A stretch of DNA of 32,000 bases from Massilicoli timonensis (GTDB taxonomy: Bacteria; Bacillota_I; Bacilli_A; Erysipelotrichales; Erysipelotrichaceae), in NCBI RefSeq assembly GCF_900199515.1, contig NZ_LT963434.1, positions 723,272-755,271 on the forward strand, written 5' to 3'. Every line of letters starts with the position of its first letter. Position 1 is the stretch's first letter. The translations under genes were made by a program, and so were the position numbers. This document shows positions 4,200 to 19,003 of the stretch, piece after piece. A model generated the notes under the pieces. That model searched no databases. It saw nothing but the letters and a program-made list of their open reading frames with translations, and was not told the DNA's origin.

Positions 4200-4477
4200 A
4201 ACTGAGTTTGTATGAACAGGAAACGATTATCCTCTACAACCAGGCCGAGGCCACCGCCGAGGTCTATTCCCACGACCCGCGCCTGCTGGAAAAGCTGCGG
4301 CGGCTGGCGGAAAAATACCCGGACCAGATCGTGAAAAAGGACCGTCAGACCTTTACGGTGCCCAAACGCTGCGTATCGGTGCGGGAGCCGTACAGCGCCG
4401 AGCGCCGCAAGGCCGCCAGCGAACGGGCCAAGGCCGCCGGGTACAAACCACCCGTCCCGAAAGCGGGCGGCAAGTAA
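4196..4477 (+). CDS. Hypothetical protein (93 aa), translationally coupled to topB
   Basis: ATGA overlap with the topB stop. Codon bias matches the backbone. No domain recognised. Confidence 0.6.
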
Positions 4478-4479
4478 GC

Positions 4480-7443
4480 ATGGGCGAGAGCGTCTTTGAA
4501 GTCGTAAAACAGTCCGTCACCGCCAGAGAGGCGGCGGAGCTTTACGGCATCGCAGTGGGGCGCGGCGGTATGGCCTGCTGCCCCTTCCACGATGACCGCC
4601 ACCCCAGCATGAAGGTGGACACCCGTTTCCACTGTTTTGGCTGCGGCGCAGACGGCGATGTGATCGACTTCACCGCCCGGCTCTATGACCTGTCCCCCAA
4701 GGGGGCCGCTGAAAAGCTGGCCCAGGATTTTGGCCTTTCTTATGACAGCAAGGCCCCGATCCGGCGAAACCATGTCCGGCAGAAATCCGAGGCGCAGGCA
4801 AGGAAAGAAAATCGGGAACACGCCTGGCGCGTTCTGGCGGATTACTACCACCTGCTCCGAAAATGGGAGACCGACTATTCCCCCAGGACGCCGGACGAGG
4901 ACCCGCACCCGCGCTTTTTGGAGGCTGTTCAGAAAAAAGAGTACATAGGCTATCTGCTGGACACTTTTCTCGACAGCAGTACCGAGGAACAGGACCAGTG
5001 GATCGCAGAACACACCACTGAACTTTCGGCCATAGAAAGGAGAGTGAAAATCATGGCTGACAAACCCACCAACCGGGAACGGCTGCAACAGATCACGGCA
5101 GGCATCGAGCAGGGCATTAAAGAGCTGTTCGAGAGCGAAAAGTATATGCGCTACCTGTCCGTGATGTCCCGGTTCCACCGCTACTCTGTCAACAACACCA
5201 TGCTCATCTATATGCAGAAGCCGGACGCCACGCTGGTGGCCGGGTACAACAAGTGGAAAAATCAGTTTGAGCGCCATGTGAAGCGCGGTGAACACGGAAT
5301 CACCATCATTGCCCCGACACCATATAAGAAGAAAATCGAGGAACAGAAGCTGGACCCGGACACCAAGGCACCTATGCTGGATCAGGATGGCAAGGTCATC
5401 ATGGAGGAACGGGAAGTTGAGATTCCCATGTTCCGCCCGGTCAAGGTGTTCGATGTGAGCCAGACGGACGGCAAGCCCCTGCCGGAGCTGGCGTCCACCC
5501 TTTCCGGGAACGTCCAGAACTATGAGGCTTTCATGGAGGCCCTGCGCCGGTCCGCGCCGGTGCCGCTCTCTGTGGAGCCGATGGCTGCCAACATGGACGG
5601 ATATTTCTCGCCGGACCGGCAGCGCATCGCCATCCGGGAGGGCATGAGCGAGGTACAGACCGTTTCCGCCGCCGTCCATGAGATCGCCCACAGCAAGCTG
5701 CACGACCCCAAAAAGTATGAGGCGGAGCCGACCTGGAAAATCGTGATGGTGAGTGGGGGCGGTGTCAAGCACGATTATCGCCTGGACTTCGCCACCGAAG
5801 CAGAGGCGGAACAGGCCGCCGCCGAGGATGACTGGCGCTATGTGGACGAAAATCAGTTTGAGTGGCGGCTGGAGGTGGAGAAAGATCTGACGGCGGTGAA
5901 ACAGGCTGTCAAGAACCGCAACACCGAGGAGGTGGAGGCCGAGAGCATTTCCTACGCCGTCTGCCAGTATTACGGCATCCAGACTGCCGACAACAGCTTT
6001 GGCTATATCGCCACCTGGAGCCAGGACAAGACGCTGCCGGAGCTGCGGGCCAGTCTGGAGACCATCAACAAGGCGGCCGGTGAGCTGATTTCTGATATTG
6101 ACCGGCATTATAAGGTTATCTGCAAGGAGCGCGGCATTGACCTGACCGCCCAGCCGGAACAGGCTGAACCCCGGCAGCCCGCAGAAGAAACACCCGACGC
6201 ACCTACTCCCAGCGCCGAAGCCCAGGAGGCCCTGTTGCTGGTTGATGATGCCACCTATCTTCATGTTCAGTCCTGCAACACCGGCTGGGACTACACACTC
6301 TACGATGCCGCCACCAGGAAGCAGTTGGACGGCGGCCAGCTGGACGCCCCGGAGCTTCCTCTGTCCACCGCCGCTCTGAAAATCTGTGAGATGTACGACT
6401 TGGGTGGCCAGAACATTCAGTATGCGCCACTGAACATGATCGAAACTTTGCAGGAGGCGGCTGTCCAGCAGATGCAGACAGCGGCCCAAGCCACCACGCC
6501 GGAAACTACCATGCTGCCGGACGCCCCGGAACAGCACCTGGACGAATACCCTATGCCCGACCCCTCGCTGACCCAGGACGATCTGGAGAAATGCGGCTAT
6601 CTGGACGGGGACCTTCTGCCCCTCTCTAAAGAACGCGCCTATGAGCTGATGGCGCAGGACCTGACCGTTTACATGGTTCAGCAGGGCGAGAATCCGGCGA
6701 TGGCTTTTGATACCACTGACCTGGACGCCCATGACGGGATCTTCGCCGTCACCCGCGAGGAATGGGAGGAAAGCCCGGCTTTCGATGCCCAGGTTAAGGA
6801 GCGTATGGATCACCAGCAGGAACGGGAACAGGCGTTCCTCGGCCACAAGGGCGACTGCTTTGCCATCTACCAGGTGAAGCACACCGATGAGCTGCGGGAC
6901 ATCCGCTATGAGGGGCTGGAATGGATCAAGTCCATCGGACGCACGGTGCAGCGGGACAATTATGATCTGGTCTACACCGCGCCGCTGGCCCCCGGCGACC
7001 TGAAAGGCAGCGTGCTGGACAATCTCGAATACCGCTTCAATAACGAACACCCCGCCGACTACCGCCACCCGTCTATGAGTGTCAGCGACATTGTTGCCAT
7101 CAAGCGGGACGGCAAGGTATCCTGTCACTACTGCGACAGCTTCGGCTTTGCCGAGGTGCCAGGTTTCCTGCCGGACAATCCGCTGAAAAATGCGGAGATG
7201 GCCGTGGAAGATGATTACGGCATGATCGACGGGATTCTCAACAACGGTTCCAAGGAACCGACGGTGGCCCAGCTGGAACAGCAGGCCCGCAGCGGCCAGC
7301 CTATTTCGCTGATGGACCTGGCTGCCGCCGCTCACCGGGAGGACCGGGATAAGAAGAAGTCCGTTGTGGAGCAGCTGAAAAGCCAGCCCAAACCCGAACA
7401 CAAAAAATCAGCGCCCAAAAAGAGCGCGGAAAGGGAGCTTTGA
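4480..7443 (+). CDS. Polyvalent protein: CHC2 zinc finger + ArdC-like ssDNA-binding/metalloprotease + YodL-like + DUF4316-like modules
   Basis: Primase-type CHC2 finger CCPFHDDRHPSMKVDTRFHCFGCGADGDVIDF. ArdC-N module YSVNNTMLIYMQKPDATLVAGYNKWKNQFERHVKRGEHGITIIAP. HExxH motif HEIAHSKLH. YodL-like CFAIYQVKHTDELRDIRYEGLEW. C-terminal EDDYGMIDGILNNG. Confidence 0.85.
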   Translation: MGESVFEVVKQSVTAREAAELYGIAVGRGGMACCPFHDDRHPSMKVDTRFHCFGCGADGDVIDFTARLYDLSPKGAAEKLAQDFGLSYDSKAPIRRNHVRQKSEAQARKENREHAWRVLADYYHLLRKWETDYSPRTPDEDPHPRFLEAVQKKEYIGYLLDTFLDSSTEEQDQWIAEHTTELSAIERRVKIMADKPTNRERLQQITAGIEQGIKELFESEKYMRYLSVMSRFHRYSVNNTMLIYMQKPDATLVAGYNKWKNQFERHVKRGEHGITIIAPTPYKKKIEEQKLDPDTKAPMLDQDGKVIMEEREVEIPMFRPVKVFDVSQTDGKPLPELASTLSGNVQNYEAFMEALRRSAPVPLSVEPMAANMDGYFSPDRQRIAIREGMSEVQTVSAAVHEIAHSKLHDPKKYEAEPTWKIVMVSGGGVKHDYRLDFATEAEAEQAAAEDDWRYVDENQFEWRLEVEKDLTAVKQAVKNRNTEEVEAESISYAVCQYYGIQTADNSFGYIATWSQDKTLPELRASLETINKAAGELISDIDRHYKVICKERGIDLTAQPEQAEPRQPAEETPDAPTPSAEAQEALLLVDDATYLHVQSCNTGWDYTLYDAATRKQLDGGQLDAPELPLSTAALKICEMYDLGGQNIQYAPLNMIETLQEAAVQQMQTAAQATTPETTMLPDAPEQHLDEYPMPDPSLTQDDLEKCGYLDGDLLPLSKERAYELMAQDLTVYMVQQGENPAMAFDTTDLDAHDGIFAVTREEWEESPAFDAQVKERMDHQQEREQAFLGHKGDCFAIYQVKHTDELRDIRYEGLEWIKSIGRTVQRDNYDLVYTAPLAPGDLKGSVLDNLEYRFNNEHPADYRHPSMSVSDIVAIKRDGKVSCHYCDSFGFAEVPGFLPDNPLKNAEMAVEDDYGMIDGILNNGSKEPTVAQLEQQARSGQPISLMDLAAAAHREDRDKKKSVVEQLKSQPKPEHKKSAPKKSAEREL

Positions 7444-7679: not shown

Positions 7680-7709
7680 GGGGCGGCCGCCGTGCCGCCC
7701 CATTTTCAT
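7680..7709 (+). terminator. GC hairpin with a short T-tract between the 71-aa gene and the giant gene (terminator or attenuator)
   Basis: GGGGCGGC (7680-7687) / cgccgt / GCCGCCCC (7694-7701) followed by ATTTTCAT. Confidence 0.45.
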
Positions 7710-7736: not shown

Positions 7737-10700
7737 ATGCCAACCAAAGCAGAACAATATGCGCAGATGGCCGATCAGGTGGCGCGGCAGCTCACCGGCA
7801 GCTGGCAGGAGTGGGCGGGCTTTCTCACCAACGCCGCCCGCCTCTACAAATATCCGTTCCATGAGCAGCTGATGATCTACGCCCAGCGCCCGGACGCCAC
7901 CGCCTGCGCCGAATACGACCTGTGGAACAACCGCATGGGCCGGTATGTGCGGCGCGGGTCCAAGGGCATCGCCCTGGTGGATGATTCCGGGGACCGGCCC
8001 CGGCTGCGGTATGTATTTGATATTTCCGACACCGGCACCCGCGAACATTCCCGCACCCCCTGGCTGTGGACGCTGAACGAGGAACACACCGCGCCGGTCA
8101 TGGCGATGCTGGAGCGAAACTATGATGTGAGCGGCGGCGACCTGGCCCAGCAGTTGGCCGATGTGGCCGCCAAACTGGCGGAGGAATACTGGGCTGACCA
8201 CCGGCGGGATATTCTCCCTATCGTTGACGGTTCCTTTTTGGAGGAGTACGATGAGTACAACATCGAAGTCCAGTTCAAATCCGCCGCCACGGTCAGCATC
8301 ACCTACGCCCTGATGTCCCGCTGCGGGCTGGAGCCGGAGCAATATTTCAGCCATGAGGACTTCATGCCGATTTTCGACTTCAACACCCCCGCTGTGATCG
8401 GGGCGCTGGGAACAGCCGTCAGCCAGGCAAACCAGCAGGTGCTGCGGCAAATCGGCGTCACCATCCAGAACTATGAGCGCGCCAAGAGCGCGGAAAGGAG
8501 TGCCACACATGGAGAACAATCTGACTTACATTCAGAACGGGGACTACCTGATTCCCGACCTGAGCCTGAGCGAGCAGCCGGAGAAGCCCCTGGGCAAGTA
8601 CGGCAGGATGCGCAAAGCGTACCTGAAGCAGCACCGGCCCATTCTGTACAACCAGCTGCTGATGACCGAGAAGCTGTACCCGCACCTGCGGGAGATCGAC
8701 GAGACGGCGAACCAGCGGTTGGAGCAGATGATGCCCCAACTAGCCGAGACGGCGGGCGCGACGGAGGCGCTGAAAGCCGCCGACCCGATGCAGTGGGTGG
8801 GCCTGATGAACACCTGCAAAGCCCAGGCGGAGGAGATTCTGCTGGCGGAACTTATCAACAGCTGACCTTAAACCTGTTCCTCACCGAAGCGGAACAGATT
8901 CAACAGATCGACGAAGCAGAGAGTGTGAAAACGCCCTCTGCTTTTTCTTTTGCCCAGGAACAGCCGCAGCCAGAAGCTGCCGACCATGAGCCGGAGGCGG
9001 CAAGGCTCACTCTCCGGGAGCTGCATGAGCGATACAAACCCATTGTGTTGGAGGCCGTTACCAAAGACACCAGATACCAGAACACCTGCGGTCACAGTGA
9101 TTATAAAAGCGCCGTGATCGAAGGAAGATCGGCTATCCAGCGCGCTGTTTTAGCGTCTGGCAATAAGGAGCTGCTTCACCTCTATTCCTACACCCCGGAG
9201 TTCCGGCAGCGCCTTCATCGTGAAGTCATCGCTGAGACTTATCCCAAGCTCCATGAGCTGCTGCGCCCACTTTCGGACAATGACATTGACCGAGCTATCC
9301 AGGACTGGAACGGCAAGATCGAAAGCAAGCACGCCGTTGTCCGCTACATGAAAGACCATACGCGGGAAAAAGATACCGCCGCATGGCTGGCCCATGAGTT
9401 TGACGGCGGCGACGGCAAAACCCCGTTTGCAGTACGCCCGGAAAGCCCCAATGGAACGATGCTGCCCTGGCCCAAGGTGCAGCGCCGGATCGCCCAGCTT
9501 ATCAAGGAAGATCGGTTCTATACCCAAGAAGAACAGGACCGTTTTGACAACATCGACCCCATCGCCATCCGGGAAGCCCTGGCCGAGCGCGGCATCGTGA
9601 ACGGCCAGGTGGTAGCCCCGGAAAAACTGGACAACGACCCGTTTATCCAACAGGTGATGCAGGATGTGGAGGCTGTTTCAGCCGAGGAACAGGCCGAGGC
9701 GGAGCCTCCTGCGCCGGACTTATCCGGCCAGCCCGTCACCCGCGAGGGAGACACCCTCACCATCGGCGGCGGCGAACCTACCCATGAGATGGATATTACC
9801 GTATCGGATGAGGAATATGAAGCCATCCGGCAGGCCATCCCGGAAACAGAGGCCCCCACCGCCTCTGACCCTGCAACACCCCCTTACCATGTGGGTGATA
9901 CCGTTTATCTGGAAAATCAGGAATACCAGATCACCGAGCTACGGGAGGACACGGTGCAGCTGCTGCCCTCTGGCATGAGCTACCCCATCTTCCGGGCCGA
10001 GAGCCAGGAGCGGTTCGAGACGCTGCTGCGTGCGGACACCCGCAACGAAGCCATCAACGAATTTTTGCCTGTAAACCCCGACACGGCGGACCAGGACCTG
10101 CGGGACGTGCTGGCCCACAGCCTGATCGGCGCGCCGGACAAGGCGGAGCTGTCCGAGCTGCTGCACACCGGCAAGCCCAACCGCGAGATTGCCCAGTGGC
10201 TGGGCCGGGCCTTCCCCGGCATCGTGGAGACGATGGAGCTGGAGACCGGCGACACCGCCGACTACCGCACCACGTCCGAAGGCATCGAGCTTGAAGTGCT
10301 GGATGCTGACGAAAAGCGGCTGGCCATGCTGTATTTTCGCTGGGATGAGGTCGCGCCGCTGCTGCGCGGGCTGTATGCCCGCCAGCTGGACGGCTTTGGG
10401 CAGGAGCAGGCCGAACCGTACATGGAAGCCCCTGCTGCCGTGGAAGAACCTGCCGAAGCTGCCAAGCCCGTCGAGGAACCCGCCGCCGAGGCCCCGGCGT
10501 TCCATTCCGAACCGGTGACCGTCTATCCTGGCGAACAGAACCATTTGCCCTATGACGTAGTGGTGGAACGGCTGCACGTTGACCAGCCGGAAGCCACGCC
10601 GCCCGAACCGCGTCCGCCTGAGAATTTCCGCATTCTGGACGATGACCTGGGGAAAGGCGGGCCAAAGGAAAAATTCTGGTGCAATATCAAAGCAATCGCC

Positions 10701-13700
10701 ACACTGAAGCAGATCGAGCAGGAAAATCGCTATGCCACCCCAGAAGAACAGCATATTCTCTCGCAATATGTAGGCTGGGGCGGGCTGGCGGATGCCTTCG
10801 ACCCGGACAAACCCGCGTGGGCCGCTGAGTATGCGGAGCTGAAGGAACTGCTGACCCCGGAGGAATATGAAGCGGCCAGGGCCTCCACCCTCAACGCCCA
10901 CTACACCAGCCCCACTGTGATCCGCGCCATCTACGACGCGGTAGAACAGATGGGCTTCCGCACCGGCAACATTCTGGAACCGTCCTGCGGTGTGGGCAAT
11001 TTCTTCGGGATGCTGCCGGAGAGCATGGCCGGCAGCCGTCTGTACGGCGTGGAACTGGATTCCATCAGCGGGCGGATTGCCCAGCAGCTCTACCCCAAGG
11101 CTAACATCACCGTGGCGGGCTTTGAGACCACCGACCGGCGGGACTTCTATGACCTTGCCATCGGTAACGTCCCTTTCGGCCAGTACCAGGTGAACGACAA
11201 AGCCTACAACAAGCTGGGCTTCAACATCCACAACTACTTTTTTGCCAAGGCGCTGGACCAGGTGCGCCCCGGCGGCGTGGTGGCCTTTGTCACCAGCCGC
11301 TACACAATGGACGCCAAGGATTCCACCGTGCGCCGGTATCTGGCCCAGCGGGCCGAGCTGCTGGGGGCGATCCGCCTGCCCAACAACGCTTTCCGCGCCA
11401 ATGCCGGGACCGATGTGGTGTCCGACATCCTGTTTCTGCAAAAGCGGGACCGCCCGCTGGACATCGCCCCGGACTGGACCCAAACCGGCCGGACCGAGGA
11501 AGGCTTCACGGTCAACCAGTATTTTCTGGATCACCCGGAGATGGTGCTGGGGCGGCCCACCGCCGAAAGCACCCAATACGGCAAACAGGATTACACCGTG
11601 GCCCCCATCGAGGGGCTGGAGCTGGCCGATCAGCTGCACGATGCCGTGAAGTACATTCGCGGCACCTACCAGGAGGCCGCGCTGCCGGAGCTGGGCGAGG
11701 GCGAGGACATCGACGAATCCCTCCCGGCTGATCCCAATGTGAAGAACTACTCCTACACGGTGGTGGACGGCGCGGTGTACTTCCGGGAAAACAGCCGCAT
11801 GGTGCGCCCCGACCTGAACGCCACCGCCGAGGCCCGCGTCAAAGGGCTGGTGGGGCTGCGGGATTGTGTGCAGCGGCTCATCGACCTGGAGATGGACGCC
11901 GCCGCGCCGGATGCCGACATCCGGGAACAGATGGCCGAGCTGAACCGGCTCTATGATGCCTTTTCTGCCAAGTACGGCCTTATCAATGACCGGGCAAACC
12001 GGCTGGCCTTTTCCGATGACAGCAGCTATTACCTGCTCTGCGCCCTGGAGGTGCTGGACGAGGACGGCAGGCTGGAACGCAAGGCAGATATGTTCACCAA
12101 GCGCACTATCAAACCCCATGAGGCCGTCACCACCGTGGACACGGCCAGCGAGGCGCTGGCGGTCTCCATCTCGGAGAAAGCCTGCGTGGACATGGCCTAC
12201 ATGGAACAGCTTACCGGCAAAACCGGCGAAGAACTGGCGGACGAGCTGCGCGGTGTCATCTTCCGTGTGCCCGGCCAGACTGAGCCGGACGGGACGCCCC
12301 ATTATGTGACCGCCGATGAATACCTGTCCGGCAACGTGCGCCGGAAGCTGCGCCAGGCCCAGCGTGCGGCGGAGCAAGACCCGGCCTTTACGGTCAACGT
12401 GGAGGCCCTCACTGCCGCCCAGCCCAAGGACCTGGACGCTTCCGAGATCGAGGTGCGGCTGGGGGCAACGTGGATCGACAAGGAGTACATCCAGCAATTC
12501 ATGTACGAGACCTTCGACACGCCTTTTTACCTCCAGCGCAGCATTGAAGTCCACTACACCCCCTTTACGGCGGAGTGGCAGATCTCCGGCAAAAATGTCG
12601 TGGGGCAAAACAATGTGGCCGCCTACTCGACCTATGGGACCGGCCGCGCAAACGCCTATAAAATCCTTGAAGATTCCCTCAATCTGCGGGACGTGCGTAT
12701 CTACGACACCGTGGAGGACGCAGACGGCAAGGAGCGCCGGGTGCTGAACGCCAAGGAAACCACCCTGGCTGCCCAAAAACAACAGGCCATCCGGGACGCT
12801 TTCCGCGACTGGATTTGGCGTGACCCGGAGCGTCGGCAGGCGCTGGTACGCCAGTACAACGAGGAAATGAACGCCACCCGGCCCCGCGAATATGACGGCA
12901 GCCACATTGTTTTTGGCGGCATGAACCCGGCCATCACCCTGCGGGAACACCAGAAAAACGCCATCGCCCATGTGCTGTACGGCGGCAATACCTTGCTGGC
13001 CCACGAGGTCGGCGCAGGCAAGACCTTTGAAATGGTGGGGGCCGCGATGGAGGCCAAGCGGCTGGGTCTGTGCCAGAAATCCCTCTTTGTGGTGCCCAAC
13101 CACCTGACCGAGCAGTGGGCTTCGGAGTTCCTGCGTCTGTACCCGTCCGCCAACATTCTTGTTACGACCAAAAAGGACTTTGAGAAACACAACCGCAAGA
13201 AGTTCTGCGCCCGCATCGCCACCGGCGACTATGACGCCATCATCATGGGTCACTCCCAGTTCGAGAAAATCCCCATCAGCAAGGAACGCCAGGAGCGACT
13301 GCTGCACGAGCAGATTTGGGAAATCACCGAGGGCATCGCCGAGGTGGAGGCCAGCGGCGGGGAACGGTTCACTGTCAAGCAGCTGGAACGCACGAAAAAG
13401 TCTCTGGAGGCGCGGCTGGAAAAGCTGCAAGCGGAGGGCCGCAAGGACGATGTGGTGACGTTTGAACAGCTGGGCGTGGACCGGCTCTTTGTGGACGAGG
13501 CGCACAATTATAAAAACCTGTTCCTCTATACAAAAATGCGGAATGTGGCGGGCCTTTCCACTACGGACGCGCAGAAATCCAGCGATATGTTTGCCAAGTG
13601 CCGGTACATGGATGAAATCACAGGCGGGCGCGGTGTAGTTTTTGCCACCGGCACGCCGGTTTCCAACTCCATGACCGAGCTTTACACCATGCAGCGGTAT

Positions 13701-15539
13701 CTCCAATATGACCGGCTGCAAGAGCTGGGCATGGCCCACTTTGACTGCTGGGCGTCCCGGTTTGGCGAAACCGTGACGGCGCTGGAGCTGGCCCCGGAGG
13801 GCACCGGCTACCGGGCCAGAACCCGTTTCTCCAAGTTCTTTAACCTGCCGGAGCTGATGAACTTGTTCAAAGAAATCGCGGACATCAAAACCGCCGACCA
13901 GCTGCACCTGCCCACGCCCCAGGTGGAGTACCACAACATCGTGGCTCAGCCCACCGAACAGCAGCAGGAAATGGTGAAGGCGCTCTCGGAGCGCGCTTCC
14001 CTGGTACACAGCGGTACAGTGGACCCGTCCCAAGACAATATGCTCAAGATCACCAGCGACGGGCGCAAGCTGGGGCTGGACCAGCGGATCATCAACCAGC
14101 TGCTGCCGGATGAGCCGGGCACCAAGGTCAATCAGTGCGTGAACAACATCATGCAGATCTGGCGGGATGGCGAGGCCGACAAGCTGACCCAGCTGGTGTT
14201 CTGCGACATCTCCACGCCCCAGGCCAAACCCGCCAAAAAGGTGGCCAAGGCGCTGGACAACCCGACCCTCCACGCTTTGGAGGACGCGGTGCCGCTGGAT
14301 GAGCCGGAACCGGCCTTTACCGTGTATGAGGACATCCGGCAGAAGCTCATCGCCCAGGGCGTACCCGCCGAGCAGATTGCCTTTATCCATGAGGCCAACA
14401 CCGAGGTGCGCAAAAAGGAGCTGTTCTCCAAGGTCCGCACCGGCCAGGTGCGCGTCCTGCTGGGCAGCACGGCCAAAATGGGCGCGGGCACCAACGTGCA
14501 GGACCGCCTGGTGGCGCTGCATGACCTGGACTGCCCGTGGCGGCCCGGCGACCTGGCCCAGCGAAAGGGACGCATCGAGCGCCAGGGCAACCAGAACGAA
14601 ACCGTCCATGTGTACCGCTATGTCACCGAGGGGACTTTCGACGCCTACCTCTGGCAGACGGTGGAAAACAAACAGAAATTCATCAGCCAGATCATGACCT
14701 CCAAATCGCCGGTGCGAAGCTGCGACGATGTGGACGAAACGGCGCTGTCCTTTGCCGAGATCAAGGCGCTGTGCGCCGGGGACCCGCGCATCAAGGAACG
14801 CATGGACCTGGATGTGGACGTGGCGCGGTTAAAGCTGATGAAGGCCGACCACCAGAGCAAACAGTACCGCCTGGAGGACCAGCTACTGAAAACCTTCCCG
14901 GAGGAGATCGAGAAAAACAAGGGGTTTATCGCCGGACTGGAAGCCGATATGGCGACCTTGGCCGCCCATCCCCACCCGGAGGACGGCTTTGCCGGGATGG
15001 AAGTCCGTGGCGACACCCTCACCGACAAGGAAAACGCTGGGGCCGCGCTGCTGGACGCCTGCAAGGAGGTCAAAGGGGCCGACCCGGTGCCGGTGGGCAG
15101 TTACCGGGGCTTCACCATGTCGGTGTCGTTTGACGCTTTCCGGCAGGAGTATATGCTCCTGCTGAAAGGCCAGATGACCCACCGGGCGACGCTTGGCACA
15201 GACCCCCGTGGAAATCTCACCCGTATCGACAATGCGCTCAGCCAGATGCCCCAGCGGCTGGAGGCGGTGAAGAACCAGCTGGACAATCTCTACCAACAGC
15301 AGGCCGCCGCCAAAGCGGAGGAGGGCAAGCCCTTCCCCCAGGAACAGGAGCTGCGGGGTAAATCCGCCCGGCTGGCCGAACTGGACGTACTGCTGAATAT
15401 GGACGGCCGGGGCCGCCCTGCGCCGGAGGCGGTGCTTGCCAAGAGCAGCCGCCCCTCGGTGCTGGAAGGGCTGAAACGCCCGGTGCCGCCGCGCAATCCC
15501 GAAAAGAAACCCAAACACCACGAACAGGAGGTGCGATAA
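7737..15539 (+). CDS. Giant polyvalent protein (2600 aa): ArdC-N-like module, linker, helical modules, N6-adenine DNA methyltransferase, SNF2/DEAD-type helicase, coiled-coil tail (phage P1 DarB-like architecture)
   Basis: GGGAGGA lies 10 nt upstream of ATG 7737. ArdC-N-like YPFHEQLMIYAQRPDATACAEYDLWNNRMGRYVRRGSKGIAL. MTase motif I LEPSCGVGNFF (about 10974-11006) and motif IV GNVPFG (11163-11180). Helicase Walker A GAGKT (13011-13025), DEAH (13494-13505), motif VI QRKGRIERQG (about 14560-14590). Uninterrupted frame. Confidence 0.9.
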   Translation: MPTKAEQYAQMADQVARQLTGSWQEWAGFLTNAARLYKYPFHEQLMIYAQRPDATACAEYDLWNNRMGRYVRRGSKGIALVDDSGDRPRLRYVFDISDTGTREHSRTPWLWTLNEEHTAPVMAMLERNYDVSGGDLAQQLADVAAKLAEEYWADHRRDILPIVDGSFLEEYDEYNIEVQFKSAATVSITYALMSRCGLEPEQYFSHEDFMPIFDFNTPAVIGALGTAVSQANQQVLRQIGVTIQNYERAKSAERSATHGEQSDLHSERGLPDSRPEPERAAGEAPGQVRQDAQSVPEAAPAHSVQPAADDREAVPAPAGDRRDGEPAVGADDAPTSRDGGRDGGAESRRPDAVGGPDEHLQSPGGGDSAGGTYQQLTLNLFLTEAEQIQQIDEAESVKTPSAFSFAQEQPQPEAADHEPEAARLTLRELHERYKPIVLEAVTKDTRYQNTCGHSDYKSAVIEGRSAIQRAVLASGNKELLHLYSYTPEFRQRLHREVIAETYPKLHELLRPLSDNDIDRAIQDWNGKIESKHAVVRYMKDHTREKDTAAWLAHEFDGGDGKTPFAVRPESPNGTMLPWPKVQRRIAQLIKEDRFYTQEEQDRFDNIDPIAIREALAERGIVNGQVVAPEKLDNDPFIQQVMQDVEAVSAEEQAEAEPPAPDLSGQPVTREGDTLTIGGGEPTHEMDITVSDEEYEAIRQAIPETEAPTASDPATPPYHVGDTVYLENQEYQITELREDTVQLLPSGMSYPIFRAESQERFETLLRADTRNEAINEFLPVNPDTADQDLRDVLAHSLIGAPDKAELSELLHTGKPNREIAQWLGRAFPGIVETMELETGDTADYRTTSEGIELEVLDADEKRLAMLYFRWDEVAPLLRGLYARQLDGFGQEQAEPYMEAPAAVEEPAEAAKPVEEPAAEAPAFHSEPVTVYPGEQNHLPYDVVVERLHVDQPEATPPEPRPPENFRILDDDLGKGGPKEKFWCNIKAIATLKQIEQENRYATPEEQHILSQYVGWGGLADAFDPDKPAWAAEYAELKELLTPEEYEAARASTLNAHYTSPTVIRAIYDAVEQMGFRTGNILEPSCGVGNFFGMLPESMAGSRLYGVELDSISGRIAQQLYPKANITVAGFETTDRRDFYDLAIGNVPFGQYQVNDKAYNKLGFNIHNYFFAKALDQVRPGGVVAFVTSRYTMDAKDSTVRRYLAQRAELLGAIRLPNNAFRANAGTDVVSDILFLQKRDRPLDIAPDWTQTGRTEEGFTVNQYFLDHPEMVLGRPTAESTQYGKQDYTVAPIEGLELADQLHDAVKYIRGTYQEAALPELGEGEDIDESLPADPNVKNYSYTVVDGAVYFRENSRMVRPDLNATAEARVKGLVGLRDCVQRLIDLEMDAAAPDADIREQMAELNRLYDAFSAKYGLINDRANRLAFSDDSSYYLLCALEVLDEDGRLERKADMFTKRTIKPHEAVTTVDTASEALAVSISEKACVDMAYMEQLTGKTGEELADELRGVIFRVPGQTEPDGTPHYVTADEYLSGNVRRKLRQAQRAAEQDPAFTVNVEALTAAQPKDLDASEIEVRLGATWIDKEYIQQFMYETFDTPFYLQRSIEVHYTPFTAEWQISGKNVVGQNNVAAYSTYGTGRANAYKILEDSLNLRDVRIYDTVEDADGKERRVLNAKETTLAAQKQQAIRDAFRDWIWRDPERRQALVRQYNEEMNATRPREYDGSHIVFGGMNPAITLREHQKNAIAHVLYGGNTLLAHEVGAGKTFEMVGAAMEAKRLGLCQKSLFVVPNHLTEQWASEFLRLYPSANILVTTKKDFEKHNRKKFCARIATGDYDAIIMGHSQFEKIPISKERQERLLHEQIWEITEGIAEVEASGGERFTVKQLERTKKSLEARLEKLQAEGRKDDVVTFEQLGVDRLFVDEAHNYKNLFLYTKMRNVAGLSTTDAQKSSDMFAKCRYMDEITGGRGVVFATGTPVSNSMTELYTMQRYLQYDRLQELGMAHFDCWASRFGETVTALELAPEGTGYRARTRFSKFFNLPELMNLFKEIADIKTADQLHLPTPQVEYHNIVAQPTEQQQEMVKALSERASLVHSGTVDPSQDNMLKITSDGRKLGLDQRIINQLLPDEPGTKVNQCVNNIMQIWRDGEADKLTQLVFCDISTPQAKPAKKVAKALDNPTLHALEDAVPLDEPEPAFTVYEDIRQKLIAQGVPAEQIAFIHEANTEVRKKELFSKVRTGQVRVLLGSTAKMGAGTNVQDRLVALHDLDCPWRPGDLAQRKGRIERQGNQNETVHVYRYVTEGTFDAYLWQTVENKQKFISQIMTSKSPVRSCDDVDETALSFAEIKALCAGDPRIKERMDLDVDVARLKLMKADHQSKQYRLEDQLLKTFPEEIEKNKGFIAGLEADMATLAAHPHPEDGFAGMEVRGDTLTDKENAGAALLDACKEVKGADPVPVGSYRGFTMSVSFDAFRQEYMLLLKGQMTHRATLGTDPRGNLTRIDNALSQMPQRLEAVKNQLDNLYQQQAAAKAEEGKPFPQEQELRGKSARLAELDVLLNMDGRGRPAPEAVLAKSSRPSVLEGLKRPVPPRNPEKKPKHHEQEVR
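8509..8865 (+). CDS. tnpV: TnpV-family protein (118 aa) nested in the +1 frame inside the giant gene
   Basis: GAAAGGAG lies 8 nt upstream of ATG 8509. MENNLTYIQNGDYLIPDLSLSEQPEKPLGKYGRMRKAYLKQHRPILYNQLLMTEKLYPHLREIDETANQRLEQMMPQLAETAGATEALKAADPMQWVGLMNTCKAQAEEILLAELINS matches my memory of the Tn4451-type TnpV family. By hand count about 105 of 118 codons end in G/C in this frame. Confidence 0.7.
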   Translation: MENNLTYIQNGDYLIPDLSLSEQPEKPLGKYGRMRKAYLKQHRPILYNQLLMTEKLYPHLREIDETANQRLEQMMPQLAETAGATEALKAADPMQWVGLMNTCKAQAEEILLAELINS

Positions 15540-15540
15540 G

Positions 15541-16608
15541 ATGAATACCGATAAAAACACGGCCCTTTATGAAAAGATGGCCGCCGAACAGGACAAGTTC
15601 CGGGACTGGCTGAAAAGCCAGCCCCCGGAGGTAATTCTAAAGCATACCTATGAGTACACGGTCCGGGAGGACATTTTGATGGCGATGGAGGAGCTTGACC
15701 TGCCCCAAAGCCGGGCCGCCGCGCTGCTGGCATCGCCGTCCCCGCTGGCCGATGTCTACAAGGAGTTTTCTGACCGGGAAATTTCCTACATGGATGTGGT
15801 GCGGGACAGCATCGAACAGCGGGCCGAGGCGGCGCTGGACGCCCAGCGGGAACTGCCGCTCTACCGGCACGACGCCGCCTATGCCCGCGAACAGGGCGAC
15901 CTGGATTTGTACCGGGCGTCCCGCCGCGCCAACATCGCCTGCAAGGAGGCCATCGAGGCGTCCATTTCGGAACATTACCGGGACAGCCGGCTGGACAAGG
16001 ACGCGGTACCCCAGGTGATCGAGCAGTTCGGCTATACCCGCACCCTCTATGTGCTGGCAAACACCGTGCAGCAGAAAGATTGGGATGAGCGTTTCAGCCC
16101 GGCCAACAAGGCGTGGGCCAGGACGGTGGACATCCCGCCCAACCCGGACGGCTTTGGCGGCGAACGCAACCTGGACTTTGTGGTGGACAGCCACTCCGGC
16201 CTGGTCGATCTGTTCTTGAGCCAGGCGCGGCAGGACTATCTGCGGCTCCAGCCGCTGACACCGGAGGAAATCCGCGCCGAGGCCGTCCGGCTCTTGCAGG
16301 AGCTTCGTGCGCCGGATACGCCCAACAGCCCCCACGGCACCCACTACATGGCCCGCGTTTCGCCGGACTTTCTGGCCCGCGCAGGCACCCAGGCTCATGA
16401 CCGGCTGATGGCGCTGCTGCCGTTCCGCAGTCTGGCGATCACCGGCATGAAGGACCTGCCCGGCACCTATGTTACCATCCTGGCCAGCGAGGACCGCTCC
16501 AAGGAGCTGCGCCAGCGCCGCCCTTCGGTCCGCCGCCAGCTGAAACAGGAGCCGCGTTCCGCTGAAAAGAAAGCGCCCGTTCGTAAGGAAAAGGAGCCGG
16601 AGCGGTGA
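15541..16608 (+). CDS. DUF3848/DUF3849-like conjugative-element protein
   Basis: ATG lies 1 nt after the giant gene's stop. N-terminus ...QDKFRDWLKSQPPEVILKHTYEYTVREDILMAME, then LYRHDAAYAREQGDLDLYRASRRANIACKEAIEASISEHY, as remembered for these two DUFs. Confidence 0.7.
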   Translation: MNTDKNTALYEKMAAEQDKFRDWLKSQPPEVILKHTYEYTVREDILMAMEELDLPQSRAAALLASPSPLADVYKEFSDREISYMDVVRDSIEQRAEAALDAQRELPLYRHDAAYAREQGDLDLYRASRRANIACKEAIEASISEHYRDSRLDKDAVPQVIEQFGYTRTLYVLANTVQQKDWDERFSPANKAWARTVDIPPNPDGFGGERNLDFVVDSHSGLVDLFLSQARQDYLRLQPLTPEEIRAEAVRLLQELRAPDTPNSPHGTHYMARVSPDFLARAGTQAHDRLMALLPFRSLAITGMKDLPGTYVTILASEDRSKELRQRRPSVRRQLKQEPRSAEKKAPVRKEKEPER

Positions 16609-16949
16609 GCGCCCCCAAGCGCAAACGGGAGGTGCAGCTGAACTTCCGGGTCTCGCCGGAAGAACTGGCGCTGATCGAGCAGAAGATGGTCCAGCTGGGG
16701 ACAAAGAACCGGGAAGCCTACCTGCGCAAGATGGCCCTGGACGGCTATGTGGTGCGCCTGGAACTGCCGGAGCTGAAGGAGTTGGTGTCCCTGATGCGCT
16801 ATTCCAGCAACAACCTGAACCAGCTGACCCGCCGTGTGCATGAAACCGGGCGCATTTACGACGCCGACCTGGAGGATATATCCCGGCGGCAGGAGGCTTT
16901 GTGGGATGGGGTGCATCAGGTATTGACCCAGCTGGCAAAGCTGTCGTGA
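16605..16949 (+). CDS. mobC: MobC-family relaxosome accessory protein
   Basis: GTG start overlapping the upstream stop (GTGA), with GGAG 7 nt upstream. RHH-like N-terminus VQLNFRVSPEELALIEQK and the MobC hallmark LMRYSSNNLNQLTRRVHETG. Confidence 0.85.
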   Translation: MSAPKRKREVQLNFRVSPEELALIEQKMVQLGTKNREAYLRKMALDGYVVRLELPELKELVSLMRYSSNNLNQLTRRVHETGRIYDADLEDISRRQEALWDGVHQVLTQLAKLS

Positions 16950-17026: not shown

Positions 17027-17546
17027 GGTGTGTCCAGCAAAGCTGGACCACACTAGCCGGTGCAAGTCCGGTCACAGTAATCGCCAGTGAGCTGTGTAGC
17101 TAAACTCGGTGCGTTGCAGTAATGCAGGGTACTAAGCGAGTGGATAAAGTAGCCTCGATAAGAGGAGCGAGCAATCATGCAGACCGTAACATAAAGTGAA
17201 TTCTGCCGTATCGTTAAAAAGGTCTCGAAAGAGAGCAAAGAGAAGTTGAGTCCTGCGAATATGGGCGAAAACCATGGAACGTGTGAAGAAACTGGAAAGC
17301 AGCACGGAAGAATCTCTCGGTATAGAGGAAGCGGTATGTATGAAAAGTGTGGTTCGGAACTGGAGAGACCCTACCCATCACCGAAGGGTAAAGAGAAAGC
17401 GTATAAGCTTGGCGAAATCGTATTTCTGATGGGAGGGAGTCGGAGAGGAACATAGTACCGATAATGGCTGTGCAAGAAAACGCAGTCTATGGGAAGGTTC
17501 CTTACTTCATTCATGTTTGTAGAGAGGGTAAGAGTGAGAGAATGTC

Positions 17547-18836
17547 ATGCAGACTAATAACTCCAAGGAAAAAGTTCGACAACTTCAAAACAAACTATAT
17601 CTAACAGCCAAGAAATGTGCTAGCCGAAGATTTCATGCACTATACGATAAAGTATACCGGGATGATGTACTTTTCGAGGCATGGAAACGGGTAAAAGCTA
17701 ATAAGGGTTCCAATGGAGTGGATGGTATCGGAATTGAGGATATTGAAGCGATAGGAATTGAGAAATATCTGACAGATATAAAAGCAGAACTGGCGGACGG
17801 CAGATACAAACCGTCCCCAGTAAAGCGGGTGATGATACCAAAGCCAGACGGAAGTAAAAGACCCCTTGGAATACCAACGGTCAAAGACAGAATCGTGCAG
17901 ATGGCTGCAAAGATAGCTATAGAGCCAGTTTTTGAAGCAGATTTTAGAGACTGCTCCTATGGCTCCAGACCCAAAAGAAGTGCTAAGCAGGCGCTTGAAA
18001 AAGTCAGAAAAGCATGTAACAACAAAGGCTACTATGTAGTAGATGCAGATATTGAGAAATTCTTTGACAATGTAAACCAGGACAAGCTGATGGTGTTAGT
18101 AGAACAGAGAATATCAGACCGGAGAATACAAAAGCTGATAAGGCAATGGCTGAAATCAGGAGTATTATACGGGAATATACTGACAATCTCTGAACTGGGC
18201 ACAAGTCAGGGATCAGTTATATCTCCGTTACTGGCAAATATCTACCTGAACACACTGGACAGATTGTGGGAAAAGTATGGACTCACCCACGGTATTCTTG
18301 TGAGGTACGCAGACGATACAGTAATCATTTGCAAAAATAAGAAAAGTGCAAACCATGCACTGAACTTATTGCGTTACATCATGGCAAAACTGGACTTAAA
18401 GCTGCATCCAAAGAAGACGAAGATTGTCAGCATGTGGGATGGAAAAGAGGGATTTGATTTTCTCGGAATGCATCACAGAAGAATGACAACGGAAACAAGC
18501 AAAGGACAACTGTATAAGGAAACATATCAGTATCCAAGCAGAAAAGCCATGAAGAAAATGAAAGCAGAAATCAAAAGGAATGTAAACAGCCGAAGTCTGC
18601 TGGTAGCAAAAGAGGAAGATTTAATAAAGAATCTGAACCCGAAAATCACAGGGTGGAAGAATTACTATTCTACCAAGACAAACGAAAGGTGGATGCAGAC
18701 GCTCGACTGGTACATTATCTGTACTTTTACAAGATGGTATAACAAGAAACACCAAAGGCGTAACCATATGTCAAAGGTGGGATTTGTTAGAAATAGCATT
18801 TACGAAAAAGGATTAAAGAAAATGGCTAGAGCATGA
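17547..18836 (+). CDS. Group II intron reverse transcriptase/maturase (no En/HNH domain)
   Basis: RT blocks RFHALYDKVYRDDVLFEAWKRVKANKGSNGVDG, IPKPDGSKRPLGIPTVKDRIVQ, VVDADIEKFFDNV, GTSQGSVISPLLANIYLN and YADD. Maturase X motif GWKNYY. The short C-terminus has no Cys/His nuclease motif. Confidence 0.95.
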   Translation: MQTNNSKEKVRQLQNKLYLTAKKCASRRFHALYDKVYRDDVLFEAWKRVKANKGSNGVDGIGIEDIEAIGIEKYLTDIKAELADGRYKPSPVKRVMIPKPDGSKRPLGIPTVKDRIVQMAAKIAIEPVFEADFRDCSYGSRPKRSAKQALEKVRKACNNKGYYVVDADIEKFFDNVNQDKLMVLVEQRISDRRIQKLIRQWLKSGVLYGNILTISELGTSQGSVISPLLANIYLNTLDRLWEKYGLTHGILVRYADDTVIICKNKKSANHALNLLRYIMAKLDLKLHPKKTKIVSMWDGKEGFDFLGMHHRRMTTETSKGQLYKETYQYPSRKAMKKMKAEIKRNVNSRSLLVAKEEDLIKNLNPKITGWKNYYSTKTNERWMQTLDWYIICTFTRWYNKKHQRRNHMSKVGFVRNSIYEKGLKKMARA

Positions 18837-18865
18837 CGTAATGCTGTAGAAAGAAGAATGTCGGA

Positions 18866-18898
18866 AAGCCGTGTGAGGGAGAACCTCATGCACGGTTT
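18866..18898 (+). ncRNA. Group II intron domain V
   Basis: AAGCCGTGTGAGGGAGAACCTCATGCACGGTTT contains the AGC catalytic triad, two helices separated by a 2-nt bulge on the 3' strand, and a GNRA-like loop. Confidence 0.7.
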
Positions 18899-19003
18899 GA
18901 TGAGGGGAAAGAGGGCCAAAGCCCTCTAACCTACTCTACCCCGTATCGTTGCACTTTTACAAACCACAAGCGATAATATCATCAGAAACGGAGGTGAAGG
19001 CTG

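Follow-up and report, generated by a model that had tools for sequence, protein, structure and literature searches.

Bases 8508-8867 of the DNA stretch studied here (the window, 32,000 nucleotides) are very probably dual-coding, namely for a linker of a long polyvalent protein and for an internally initiated protein of the TnpV family. According to the proposed mechanism, ribosomes coming from 7737 would read the overlap as a hydrophilic, probably disordered spacer placed between the ArdC-N-like header, presumably ssDNA-binding, and the remainder of the giant protein with its methylase and SNF2 helicase. Other ribosomes would start internally, at a Shine-Dalgarno (SD)-like sequence and ATG (8493-8500 and 8509), and read the +1 frame into the 118-aa TnpV, finishing at the TGA at 8865, exactly where the conserved long-frame sequence resumes. 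The constraint is asymmetric: TnpV residues are conserved, and the spacer needs only to be stop-free and hydrophilic, being kept open via skewed synonymous codons of tnpV (no T before AA, AG or GA and few T-ending codons). As judged from sequence comparisons, both products are most likely made, with a separate internal start for TnpV, which may act with the polyvalent protein in transfer or establishment.

The Long Polyvalent Gene and Its Surroundings

The following features, all on the + strand, are considered below.

7737..15539, + strand: long polyvalent gene, 2600 aa (ORF list, translation, Pfam, homologous open long ORFs)
7737..8480, + strand: N-terminal header, weakly ArdC-N-like (Pfam ArdcN, E 9e-4, 19.9 bits, GA 22.6)
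8493..8500, + strand: Shine-Dalgarno-like GAAAGGAG of tnpV (..AERS.. in the long-frame translation)
8509..8865, + strand: putative nested tnpV, 118 aa and TGA, in the +1 frame with respect to the long gene (Pfam TnpV)
8508..8867, + strand: overlap in the long frame, a hydrophilic low-complexity linker, about aa 258-377 (translation)
8856..8951, + strand: conserved long-frame motif QQLTLNLFLTEAEQIQQIDEAESVKTPSAFSF, which begins where tnpV stops and is not preceded by a start codon
10890..11450, + strand: N6-adenine DNA methyltransferase region, aa 1052-1238 (Pfam N6_Mtase/Eco57I, sub-threshold)
12933..14699, + strand: SNF2/ResIII helicase core and Helicase_C, aa 1733-2321 (Pfam)

The long gene carries, in this order, the ArdC-N-like header, the linker, a variable region, the N6-adenine methylase and the SNF2 helicase, so that many unrelated domains (header, methylase, SNF2/ResIII/Helicase_C) are joined in one ORF of 2600 aa, as is characteristic of polyvalent proteins. 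A preliminary description of this DNA, made from the sequence alone, called positions 7737-8480 ArdC-N-like; the motif pattern (YKY.F..QL.IYAQ and W..GR.V.RG.KGI) agrees with this label, but the Pfam ArdcN score remains under the threshold (19.9 vs 22.6). A two-helix and four-strand topology was seen for the header in a low-confidence AF2 model. Its homologues were found in 160 plasmid records and 565 metagenome stretches, and its ω in the long frame is 0.12. Partial NCBIfam matches were obtained for the methylase region (MAD2/PglX-like) and for the helicase region (DrmD-type helicases); the latter is also recognized by Pfam as SNF2-rel_dom (E 1.9e-10) and ResIII (E 4.8e-8), followed by Helicase_C.

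The surroundings are those of a conjugative or mobilizable element. The window contains CD1107-like, topoisomerase III, a second polyvalent protein, DUF3848/3849, NikA/MobC and relaxase genes, and in related plasmids the homologous long gene stands in MobP2, MobQ and T4SS gene contexts.

The Nested Gene tnpV

The +1-frame ORF spans 8473..8865 with its TGA stop at 8863-8865, and the frame of 7737-15539 has no stop across the same bases. Both facts had been pointed out in the preliminary description, all checkable sequence statements of which hold, and its proposal that the ORF belongs to the TnpV family was confirmed by a full-length match of the 8509-8862 product to Pfam PF14198 (1-111/111, E 3.6e-44, 149.7 bits, cut-off 27). 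The product also matches phrog_24764 (E 1e-38).

The sequence GAAAGGAG, an 8-nt spacer and ATG 8509 follow one another, and the predicted TnpV begins with Met-Glu-Asn, its N-terminal peptide being MENNLTYIQNGDYLIPDLSLSEQPEK. A motif of the GAAAGG/GGAGG type was found 6-10 nt upstream of the nested ATG in 13/13 lineages checked, and the ATG itself is conserved at the Pfam-defined N-terminus of TnpV in all of the lineages checked. With its own start and stop, the nested ORF has the size of a small stand-alone protein (about 110-125 aa), and 118-aa homologues have been annotated as separate genes thousands of times. The family comprises 6,466 clusters at 50% identity; its best 150 representatives are all no longer than 402 aa and include no long fusion. 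The AF2 model of TnpV is of good confidence (pLDDT 87) and gave no significant PDB or BFVD match, and no relatives of known function were found by sequence or structure.

The preference for G or C at the third codon position also follows the tnpV frame, as had been claimed. It amounts to 0.89 in this frame (about 105/118 codons), and at the long frame's own third position it is 0.33 across the overlap vs 0.65-0.81 in the rest of the long gene. The open run of the tnpV frame (155 codons) is unexceptional in such a GC-rich window, where other alternative-frame runs reach 169, 155 and 151 codons, and therefore the window by itself offers the Pfam match and the codon signal as evidence. A search for RNA structure around the nested start gave nothing (z-score 0.02), and a search for an internal promoter gave a single weak match (9/12, at 8224-8252), no more than expected.

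The Overlap as a Linker of the Long Protein

In the long frame, the overlap is read as a text rich in G, A, D, P, R and E, with 9% of hydrophobic residues vs 30% elsewhere in the protein, in agreement with its earlier characterization as low-complexity. T is depleted at linker codon position 1, that is tnpV position 3 (T3), in 12/12 lineages, so that a part of the extreme GC3 of tnpV is attributable to the overlap itself. Directly after the overlap, the codon-position variability returns to the long-frame pattern (position 3, 0.60 vs 0.32/0.21). The absence of a nearby start for the downstream part was likewise borne out: the next in-frame ATG after 8865 is at 9348, and near the junction just one start-type codon precedes it, GTG 8925, without an SD.

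An AF2 model of residues 1-538 of the long protein showed no secondary structure at 258-422 and a confident part at 423-530, with an overall pLDDT of 44; since the whole model is poor, the low confidence of the linker does not discriminate for disorder. In an OLGenie-style test, no purifying selection on linker residues was found, dNN/dNS being 1.9 (CI 1.2-3.4), a value above 1 that is probably a bias because NS sites are second positions of tnpV. The dSN/dSS of the linker in the same type of test was 0.54 (CI 0.18-2.4), calculated from 3.4 SS sites only. As far as these substitution patterns indicate, the function of the long frame across the overlap is limited to staying open and hydrophilic.

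The junctions also bear on another reading, in which the header, TnpV and the methylase-helicase are three separate cistrons, the frame being open only for translational coupling, or in which the fusion is cleaved at the linker. In our opinion this is improbable, although gene callers do split the region in such a manner in some genomes (in one of them into TnpV and a 2381-aa protein), the linker residues are not conserved, and processing of polyvalent proteins into parts was proposed by Iyer et al. (2017, PMC5512222). However, the header lacks a stop of its own in any lineage, as the preliminary description had noted for the window, and the conserved long-frame sequence begins at the tnpV stop with neither start codon nor SD. 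Hydrophilic composition has been kept, as expected of a linker within a protein. Moreover, the overlap would still be translated in both frames, which makes this reading a variant of the dual-coding explanation rather than a true alternative.

Both Frames in Related Elements

Both frames are intact in 84/84 close loci and in about 80 diverse loci from Clostridia, Bacilli and Tissierellia, with 25-62% GC and TnpV identities down to about 10-30%, so the nesting is widespread, as had been predicted for the case that certain linker motifs mirror those of TnpV. Not a single stop was found in the long frame across the overlap in 63 (close) and 78 (diverse) distinct DNAs, 141 in total. Both frames were open in each plasmid lineage inspected, namely two of Clostridium botulinum and those of C. 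perfringens, Virgibacillus, Bacillus cereus, Enterococcus faecalis, Listeria monocytogenes, Anaerococcus, Streptococcus agalactiae, R. albus, Cohnella and Monoglobus. The C. botulinum and C. perfringens plasmids (25% GC) provide the check on AT-rich homologues that the preliminary description had called for.

The nested ORFs of 11 other lineages all match TnpV, 9/11 of them above the gathering score; those of streptococci and Anaerococcus are weakly TnpV-like (16-25 bits; hhalign probability 40%, E 3e-4). The motifs named earlier for linkers of related proteins (HG..LH..GRL and a motif containing W) were indeed found to be frame-shadows of TnpV motifs: HGEQ.DLH..R(G/R)L, and REIW or REVW opposite LGKYG. 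A protein search with the E. faecalis TnpV returned 5 proteins only, showing how rarely gene callers report the nested ORF in AT-rich hosts.

Metagenome loci were chosen by the N-module alone, using an alignment of 6 sequences (the 11-lineage version was too divergent for use). A TnpV-like +1 ORF was present in 72/72 of them and both frames were open in 68/72. Two of the 4/72 loci with a disrupted frame come from contigs covered 1.3-1.7x and probably reflect errors; disrupted loci may also be real pseudogenes. Judging from these comparisons, the overlap arrangement is ancient, and plasmids and ICEs of Bacillota carry this gene family in the nested form as a rule. The so-called snf2 genes of Listeria, Enterococcus, B. 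cereus and clostridial plasmids share the overlap, and ICESa2603-type elements probably do so as well.

Internal SD-like sequences upstream of the shift site are known to stimulate frameshifting in dnaX and prfB. By analogy, the SD-like motif might be the stimulator of a programmed +1 frameshift near 8500, giving a header-TnpV fusion (about 375 aa) beside the full-length protein, in the manner of dnaX or IS3-type systems. In the window, the 37 codons of the tnpV frame that precede the ATG are free of stops, and some database proteins contain the header and TnpV in one frame. Nevertheless, one such protein switches frame twice and resembles an assembly error, and most AT-rich lineages have a tnpV-frame stop 1-2 codons before the nested ATG, so that a shift upstream of the ATG would terminate at once. 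A conserved slippery site was not seen, the same ATG and the same SD also serve in stand-alone tnpV genes, and the constancy of the ATG and the lack of long fusions in the family, described above, argue in the same direction. Frameshifting is very unlikely to account for TnpV.

Chance and Selection

The long frame might also be open incidentally, since a GC3-rich gene seldom makes stops in its -1 shadow frame, and the fusion would then have no selective meaning. Alternative-frame open runs of 130-170 codons are common in the window, and about 2-15% of synonymous shuffles leave an individual GC-rich sequence open. When tnpV of the window was shuffled synonymously, the long frame was open in 2.4% of trials; the probability for GC-rich sequences was about 0.045. 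In contrast, it was open in 0/3000 shuffles of the 25%-GC plasmids, which are among the 63 and 78 distinct sequences without stops. The reverse test, on the probability of an open tnpV frame given the linker, yielded 3e-4 to 2e-3. Among the alternative-frame runs of AT-rich genes, the nested ORF is the longest by a wide margin (123 vs 44 and 120 vs 36 codons).

The choice of synonymous codons speaks against chance as well. At tnpV position 3 before AA, AG or GA, where T would create a stop in the long frame, T was found at 0/1755 sites in the close set, against 538/3326 at other sites, and at 0/2013 against 774/4166 in the diverse set; pooled, this gives 0/3768 vs 16-19%, and by column 0/20 vs 29/46. 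No avoidance of such T was observed in the flanks of the long gene (17% and 13%), and in stand-alone tnpV genes T occupies 37/165 (22%) of those sites. The linker-equivalent frame of stand-alone tnpV genes contains 4-14 stops, vs 0 in 16/16 nested genes. Descent from one recent clone is excluded by TnpV identities of 10-40%. An incidental read-through is thus highly improbable.

The tnpV frame is under purifying selection, as was shown by ω = 0.17 (NG86) and dNN/dSN 0.21 (CI 0.15-0.33, OLGenie-style). Its dS is about 44% below that of the adjacent N-module, in 96% of 2145 pairs, a difference that could come partly from other causes. Hence, in diverged homologues both frames stay open beyond compositional expectation, the nested frame is constrained by its own product, and selection from the long frame is visible as the avoidance of stop-creating T, the depletion of T3 and the lowered dS of tnpV. 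At the level of sequence evolution, it was shown that both frames are maintained by selection and that the initiation signals are conserved. The proposal of a dual-coding segment made in the preliminary description (either the overprinting of a disordered linker or a reading-through of three genes) is therefore supported, and each of the refutation tests that it named came out in its favour, namely the family match, the openness of both frames in homologues and the conservation of the TnpV frame under purifying selection (ω about 0.2). That tnpV is a dead relic of a transposon gene insertion, unexpressed and serving as linker-coding DNA, is next to inconceivable, even if TnpV has no known function and many pipelines annotate the long CDS only, because every lineage keeps the ORF intact together with its SD and ATG, its ω is so low, Pfam-level conservation persists at 10-40% identity, and reverse shuffles gave a probability of 3e-4 to 7e-2 for an open tnpV frame given the linker protein.

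Origin of the Nesting

The data on the origin of this arrangement are mixed. When codon usage is compared with that of the remaining long gene, the tnpV frame is the more similar one in GC-rich lineages and the linker frame in AT-rich lineages, and in a neighbour-joining tree of TnpV, which is weak, solo and nested copies are interspersed. No remnants of the polyvalent gene were found in the flanks of solo tnpV. A rather unlikely scenario may be mentioned, in which the TnpV family was born, or has mostly lived, inside the linker. Nesting would then be its ancestral state, and the tnpV copies that stand free in Tn4451-type transposons and resistance islands would have escaped repeatedly from polyvalent genes. 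TnpV would also be an obligate partner of the header-methylase-SNF2 protein at DNA entry, its synthesis being tuned by the ribosome traffic of the long frame.

Relation to Known Systems and Significance

Phage lambda offers a parallel in Rz/Rz1, where a whole gene, start included, lies in the +1 frame of a larger gene on the same strand and both products are made. The nested tnpV resembles Rz1 in this respect and differs in several others: Rz/Rz1 are lysis genes of a phage whose products form one complex, there is no homology, the partnership of TnpV with the long protein is presumed, the host frame of tnpV encodes a linker within a conjugative-element protein of 2600 aa, and the TnpV family also exists in stand-alone form. 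Another small gene with its own RBS, lying out of frame inside a giant multidomain gene of Firmicutes, is comS (46 aa) within srfA-B of Bacillus subtilis. It belongs to a single lineage and overlaps a structured NRPS domain, whereas tnpV, of 118 aa, occurs across Bacillota classes and overlaps a low-complexity spacer.

Viral overprinting (for example phiX174 E in D), the subject of two reviews (PMC8227390, PMC6195259), is similar in having two same-strand frames, one of them biased and probably disordered, with asymmetric constraint and with the codon usage of one frame distorted by the other. In contrast to viruses, the element bearing tnpV is a large plasmid or ICE without obvious pressure on genome size, and the low-complexity frame belongs here to a large, presumably older multidomain gene.

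TnpV proteins of Tn4451/Tn4453-type transposons (PF14198) belong to the same family by the Pfam match given above and have the same length and SD-ATG context. Their genes are, however, free-standing after the serine recombinase gene tnpX and carry the 4-14 stops in the -1 frame, while the nested tnpV has no adjacent recombinase; one comparison locus does show a Tn4451-like context. TnpV of these transposons was postulated to be Xis-like on the basis of weak similarity (PMC3158075). The position of TnpV inside snf2 of plasmids and ICEs suggests that it belongs to a toolkit of DNA entry or anti-defence and is not an excisionase.

Polyvalent proteins were proposed to be delivered together with DNA to counter the defences of the recipient (Iyer, Burroughs, Anand, de Souza and Aravind 2017, PMC5512222). 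The proteins described there share with the present one a header (ArdC-N there, weakly ArdC-N-like here) followed by methylase and SWI2/SNF2 domains, as well as the context of T4SS, relaxase and topoisomerase genes. TnpV, overlapping frames and frameshifts have 0 occurrences in that paper, and the gene hidden in the linker next to the header goes beyond what it describes; no description of the tnpV/polyvalent overlap was found in the literature searched. The snf2 gene of the ICESa2603 family and enterococcal plasmids has been treated as a single gene and an integration hot spot (PMC12942858). In S. agalactiae CP138365, a homologous header-linker-methylase-SNF2 gene contains a 140-codon +1 ORF at the same place, although this ORF is only weakly TnpV-like (hhalign probability 40%).

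Long, well-supported same-strand overlaps are rare in bacteria, and few of them have been fully established according to a 2022 paper. The tnpV pair (about 357 nt) is found across Bacillota classes at 25-62% GC, and stand-alone tnpV genes serve as a natural control freed of the constraint, which makes it a clean model of two frames sharing one sequence. Annotation fails here systematically: either TnpV is dropped, as in plasmids of C. botulinum, C. perfringens, Listeria, Enterococcus and B. cereus, or the header is dropped and the giant gene truncated, sometimes with a spurious antisense CDS (Paenibacillus, Cohnella). The overlap locates a very widespread uncharacterized protein within snf2 of plasmids and ICEs that matter medically, and a mutation or transposon insertion in this region of snf2 affects two genes at once.

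Nested ORF and Its Host Gene

The preliminary description proposed that a complete tnpV gene lies out of frame within a long polyvalent gene, and all its coordinates were confirmed:

7737..15539, + strand: long polyvalent gene, 2600 aa, stop-free across 8473-8865
8473..8865, + strand: tnpV-frame ORF in the +1 frame of the long gene, with TGA at 8863-8865
8493-8500, + strand: SD-like GAAAGGAG, followed by an 8-nt spacer and ATG 8509

Pfam assigns the 118-aa product from 8509 to TnpV (PF14198) over the full profile length (1-111/111, E 3.6e-44, 149.7 bits with a cut-off of 27 bits), in agreement with the family proposed in the preliminary description. The G/C preference at codon position 3 follows the tnpV frame, as had been counted by hand: it is 0.89 there vs. 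0.33 in the long frame over the same bases, the rest of the long gene having 0.65-0.81. The long protein contains N6-methylase/Eco57I-type and SNF2/ResIII/Helicase_C matches. Its N-terminal module (header, residues 1-248) had been called ArdC-N-like; such a match is present, but it remains below the Pfam cut-off (E 9e-4, 19.9 vs. 22.6 bits).

Both Reading Frames in Close Relatives

With long-frame residues 1-538 as the query, 2802 related proteins were found, 11 of which were examined at full length (70-96% identity). The shadow-frame linker text HGEQPDLH..RLPDSRPEPER..GQVRQDA.. is common to 10 of them, and the eleventh, P0051, has a frame switch within the overlap. Searching with TnpV gave about 8000 proteins, mostly separate 118-aa genes named 'TnpV protein' by NCBI, and a scan of one genome per species found 547 relatives. 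The best 80 of these loci (many from Oscillospiraceae, Lachnospiraceae and Erysipelotrichales, and others), the window and three more made up a set of 84. In all 84, tnpV is intact and the long frame, -1 relative to it, is open throughout, opening about 800 nt upstream.

Among the 63 distinct tnpV DNAs of this set (pairwise identity 79-99.7%) no long-frame stop was found, while only about 4.5% of synonymous-codon shuffles of tnpV kept the long frame open and 2-3 stops were to be expected. The site test is decisive. A T at tnpV position 3 before AA, AG or GA creates a long-frame stop, and such stop-risk T was used at 0 of 1755 opportunities vs. 538/3326 (16%) elsewhere (by alignment column, 0/20 vs. 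29/46). The long-gene flanks show normal T use in the same dinucleotide context (17% and 13%).

Free-standing tnpV genes served as a control: Campylobacter coli pCOS502 (directly 3' of a serine recombinase), Pusillibacter, a Salmonella IncHI2 plasmid, Ligilactobacillus, Heyndrickxia pMSR0 and Vescimonas. They have 4-14 stops in the -1 frame vs. none in 16/16 nested genes, and carry T at 37/165 stop-risk sites; therefore, the constraint is a property of the nested context and not of TnpV as such. The +1 frame of tnpV always contains 7-24 stops.

Distant and AT-Rich Relatives

When plasmids were searched by tblastn, TnpV matches in C. botulinum, C. perfringens and Virgibacillus fell within CDSs annotated as 'SNF2-related' or 'helicase-related', always with the +1 offset. 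These nested ORFs are intact (117-122 aa, full-length Pfam TnpV, E 2e-21 to 5e-24) and lie directly downstream of a header of about 240 aa, and the long-frame spacer that they overlap is K/R/E/S/N-rich. Among the alternative-frame runs of the 25%-GC plasmids, the nested ORF is far longer than any other (123 vs. 44 and 120 vs. 36 codons); 0 of 3000 synonymous shuffles of tnpV left the long frame open, and in the converse shuffle, with the linker protein fixed, the probability of an open tnpV was 3e-4 to 2e-3.

A plasmid search with the header alone gave 160 records, and a nested +1 ORF with a TnpV match was present in every full-length example opened, six above the gathering score and two below: C. 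botulinum pCDC3875, Anaerococcus prevotii pAPRE01, B. cereus pBFI_3, Cohnella, E. faecalis pKUB3006-2, L. monocytogenes pLIS32, S. agalactiae CP138365, R. albus pRUMAL02 and Monoglobus. The streptococcal and Anaerococcus ORFs are weak TnpV relatives (hhalign probability 40%, E 3e-4, end to end). A metagenome scan, blind to TnpV because it was seeded with header motifs only, yielded 72 loci with sufficient downstream DNA. A TnpV-like +1 ORF was found in 72/72, and 68/72 had both frames intact; in the remaining four a frame is disrupted, two of these loci being on contigs with 1.3-1.7x coverage. The pooled diverse set (78 distinct DNAs, 16 clusters at 50% identity, tnpV GC 0.32-0.63) contained no long-frame stops, with stop-risk T at 0/2013 vs. 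774/4166 sites. The earlier suspicion that the nesting is widespread thus holds, AT-rich hosts included.

Character of the Constraint

Position 3 of tnpV codons corresponds to linker position 1, and T is depleted there in 12/12 lineages (0.06-0.18 vs. 0.12-0.43 in the rest of the gene); the hydrophobic fraction of the linker is low, 0.09-0.22 vs. 0.30-0.34. NG86 values of ω are 0.12 (header) and 0.17 (tnpV), and dS of tnpV is 44% lower than that of the header (0.42 vs. 0.745; lower in 96% of 2145 pairs). An OLGenie-style partition gave dNN/dSN of 0.21 (CI 0.15-0.33) for tnpV, whereas conservation of linker residues was not detected (dNN/dNS 1.9; dSN/dSS 0.54, from very few SS sites), so the TnpV sequence is the conserved part, the long frame being held open and hydrophilic.

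Variability at codon positions 1/2/3, in long-frame numbering, is of the long-frame type in the header (0.29/0.20/0.77), of the tnpV type in the overlap (0.48/0.24/0.12) and of the long-frame type again right past the tnpV stop (0.32/0.21/0.60). There, as had been pointed out earlier, a conserved motif, QQLTLNLFL(S/T)EAEQIQ.IDEAE...SAFSF, starts without ATG or SD; the first ATG downstream is that of 9348, and no SD precedes GTG 8925. This resumption is hard to explain unless ribosomes reach the motif from the overlap.

Initiation Signals of tnpV

A purine-rich SD (GAAAGGAG, GAAAGGA, AGAGGAGG, TAGGAGG...) stands 6-10 nt 5' of the first nested ATG in 13/13 lineages, and solo tnpV genes have the same SD-ATG context. 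Entry into tnpV by frameshifting from the header is argued against by a tnpV-frame stop 1-2 codons before the nested ATG in most AT-rich lineages. TnpV is not normally an in-frame domain of giant proteins, since none among the best 150 of 6,466 TnpV family clusters exceeds 402 aa. No RNA structure was found around the nested start (z 0.02), nor any convincing internal promoter for tnpV. Two 207-aa metagenomic products, P0121 and P0122 (contigs of 726-1169 nt), contain two TnpV-matching stretches each, which may reflect tandem duplication or chimeric assembly.

In summary, the dual-coding reading is supported: the overlap very probably represents an ancient and genuine case of dual coding that extends across Bacillota and is constrained asymmetrically, and both products are most likely made. 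The pair is a new example of nested overprinted genes, an already known kind. It is unusual in that a polyvalent-protein spacer provides the host frame, the nested gene comes from a large family also found free-standing, and the conservation spans very different base compositions.

Possible Role and Previous Annotation

The AF2 model of TnpV is confident (pLDDT 87) and consists of a β-hairpin and then five helices, of which two are long; it gave no significant match in PDB or BFVD, and the sequence has no relative in PDB. TnpV belongs to a PHROG of unknown function, and for Tn4451 TnpV an Xis-like role has been postulated (PMC3158075). Because tnpV is locked in the linker next to the header, in a protein proposed to accompany the DNA into the recipient (Iyer et al. 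2017, PMC5512222), TnpV may have a role in transfer or establishment.

The same paper on polyvalent proteins does not mention TnpV, overlaps or frameshifts, and work on the ICESa2603 'snf2' integration hot spot treated snf2 as one gene (PMC12942858). Literature searches on TnpV, and on genes that overlap or are embedded in conjugative plasmids, gave no account of the tnpV/long-gene pair. Annotation varies between records: some show only the long CDS, and others have TnpV, a shortened downstream gene and, over the header, a spurious antisense CDS, as at two homologous loci:

L003 9355-9852, - strand: antisense 'hypothetical protein' over the header (public annotation)
L094 8280-8843, - strand: antisense 'hypothetical protein' over the header (public annotation)

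Apparently, these calls arise since the sense ORF could not close once TnpV was called, and the header is left without annotation.

Surrounding Element

The neighbourhood of the long gene is a conjugative element, with a CD1107-like protein, topoisomerase III, DUF3848/3849, NikA/MobC and a relaxase. Further features are as follows:

4480-7443, + strand: second polyvalent protein, 987 aa, immediately upstream of the long gene
7680-7701, + strand: terminator-like G+C-rich hairpin and T-run, 3' of 4480-7443 and 35 nt 5' of the long-gene start
17054-18939, + strand: complete group II intron between a NikA/MobC-like gene (16605-16949) and the relaxase (21496-22905)
17547-18836: RT/maturase ORF of the intron (RVT_1, GIIM)
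19787-21268, - strand: 493-aa gene with Schlafen AlbA_2, HATPase_c_4 and a Fic-like C-terminal domain
9939-14609 and 4345-7401, - strand: long antisense ORFs of 1556 and 1018 aa, mirroring the two giant genes

The second polyvalent protein has a DnaG zinc ribbon, bona fide ArdcN, a DUF6782 metallopeptidase-like domain, LPD16, YodL and DUF4316; therefore, two ArdC-N-headed proteins stand in tandem, the long-gene match being sub-threshold. The hairpin between the two giant genes could be a terminator or attenuator. Rfam matches of the intron are group-II-D1D4-4 (17054-17194) and Intron_gpII (18864-18939). The 493-aa gene lies between the intron and the relaxase, opposite in orientation to the transfer genes.

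Right past the post-overlap motif (about 8950-9100 in the window; also in the homologues P0009, P0079 and P0114 and at L003 10500-12500), domain content varies among homologues. A MutS_I-containing insert in L003 and P0009 is missing from the window, and some database proteins continue in frame into sequence of a serine recombinase (PF07508) or a tyrosine integrase (PF00589), which looks like insertion of other mobile elements into this gene. This pattern fits the reported integration hot spot 'snf2' (PMC12942858). For the antisense ORFs, the most likely explanation is a shadow effect of the GC3-rich coding frames.
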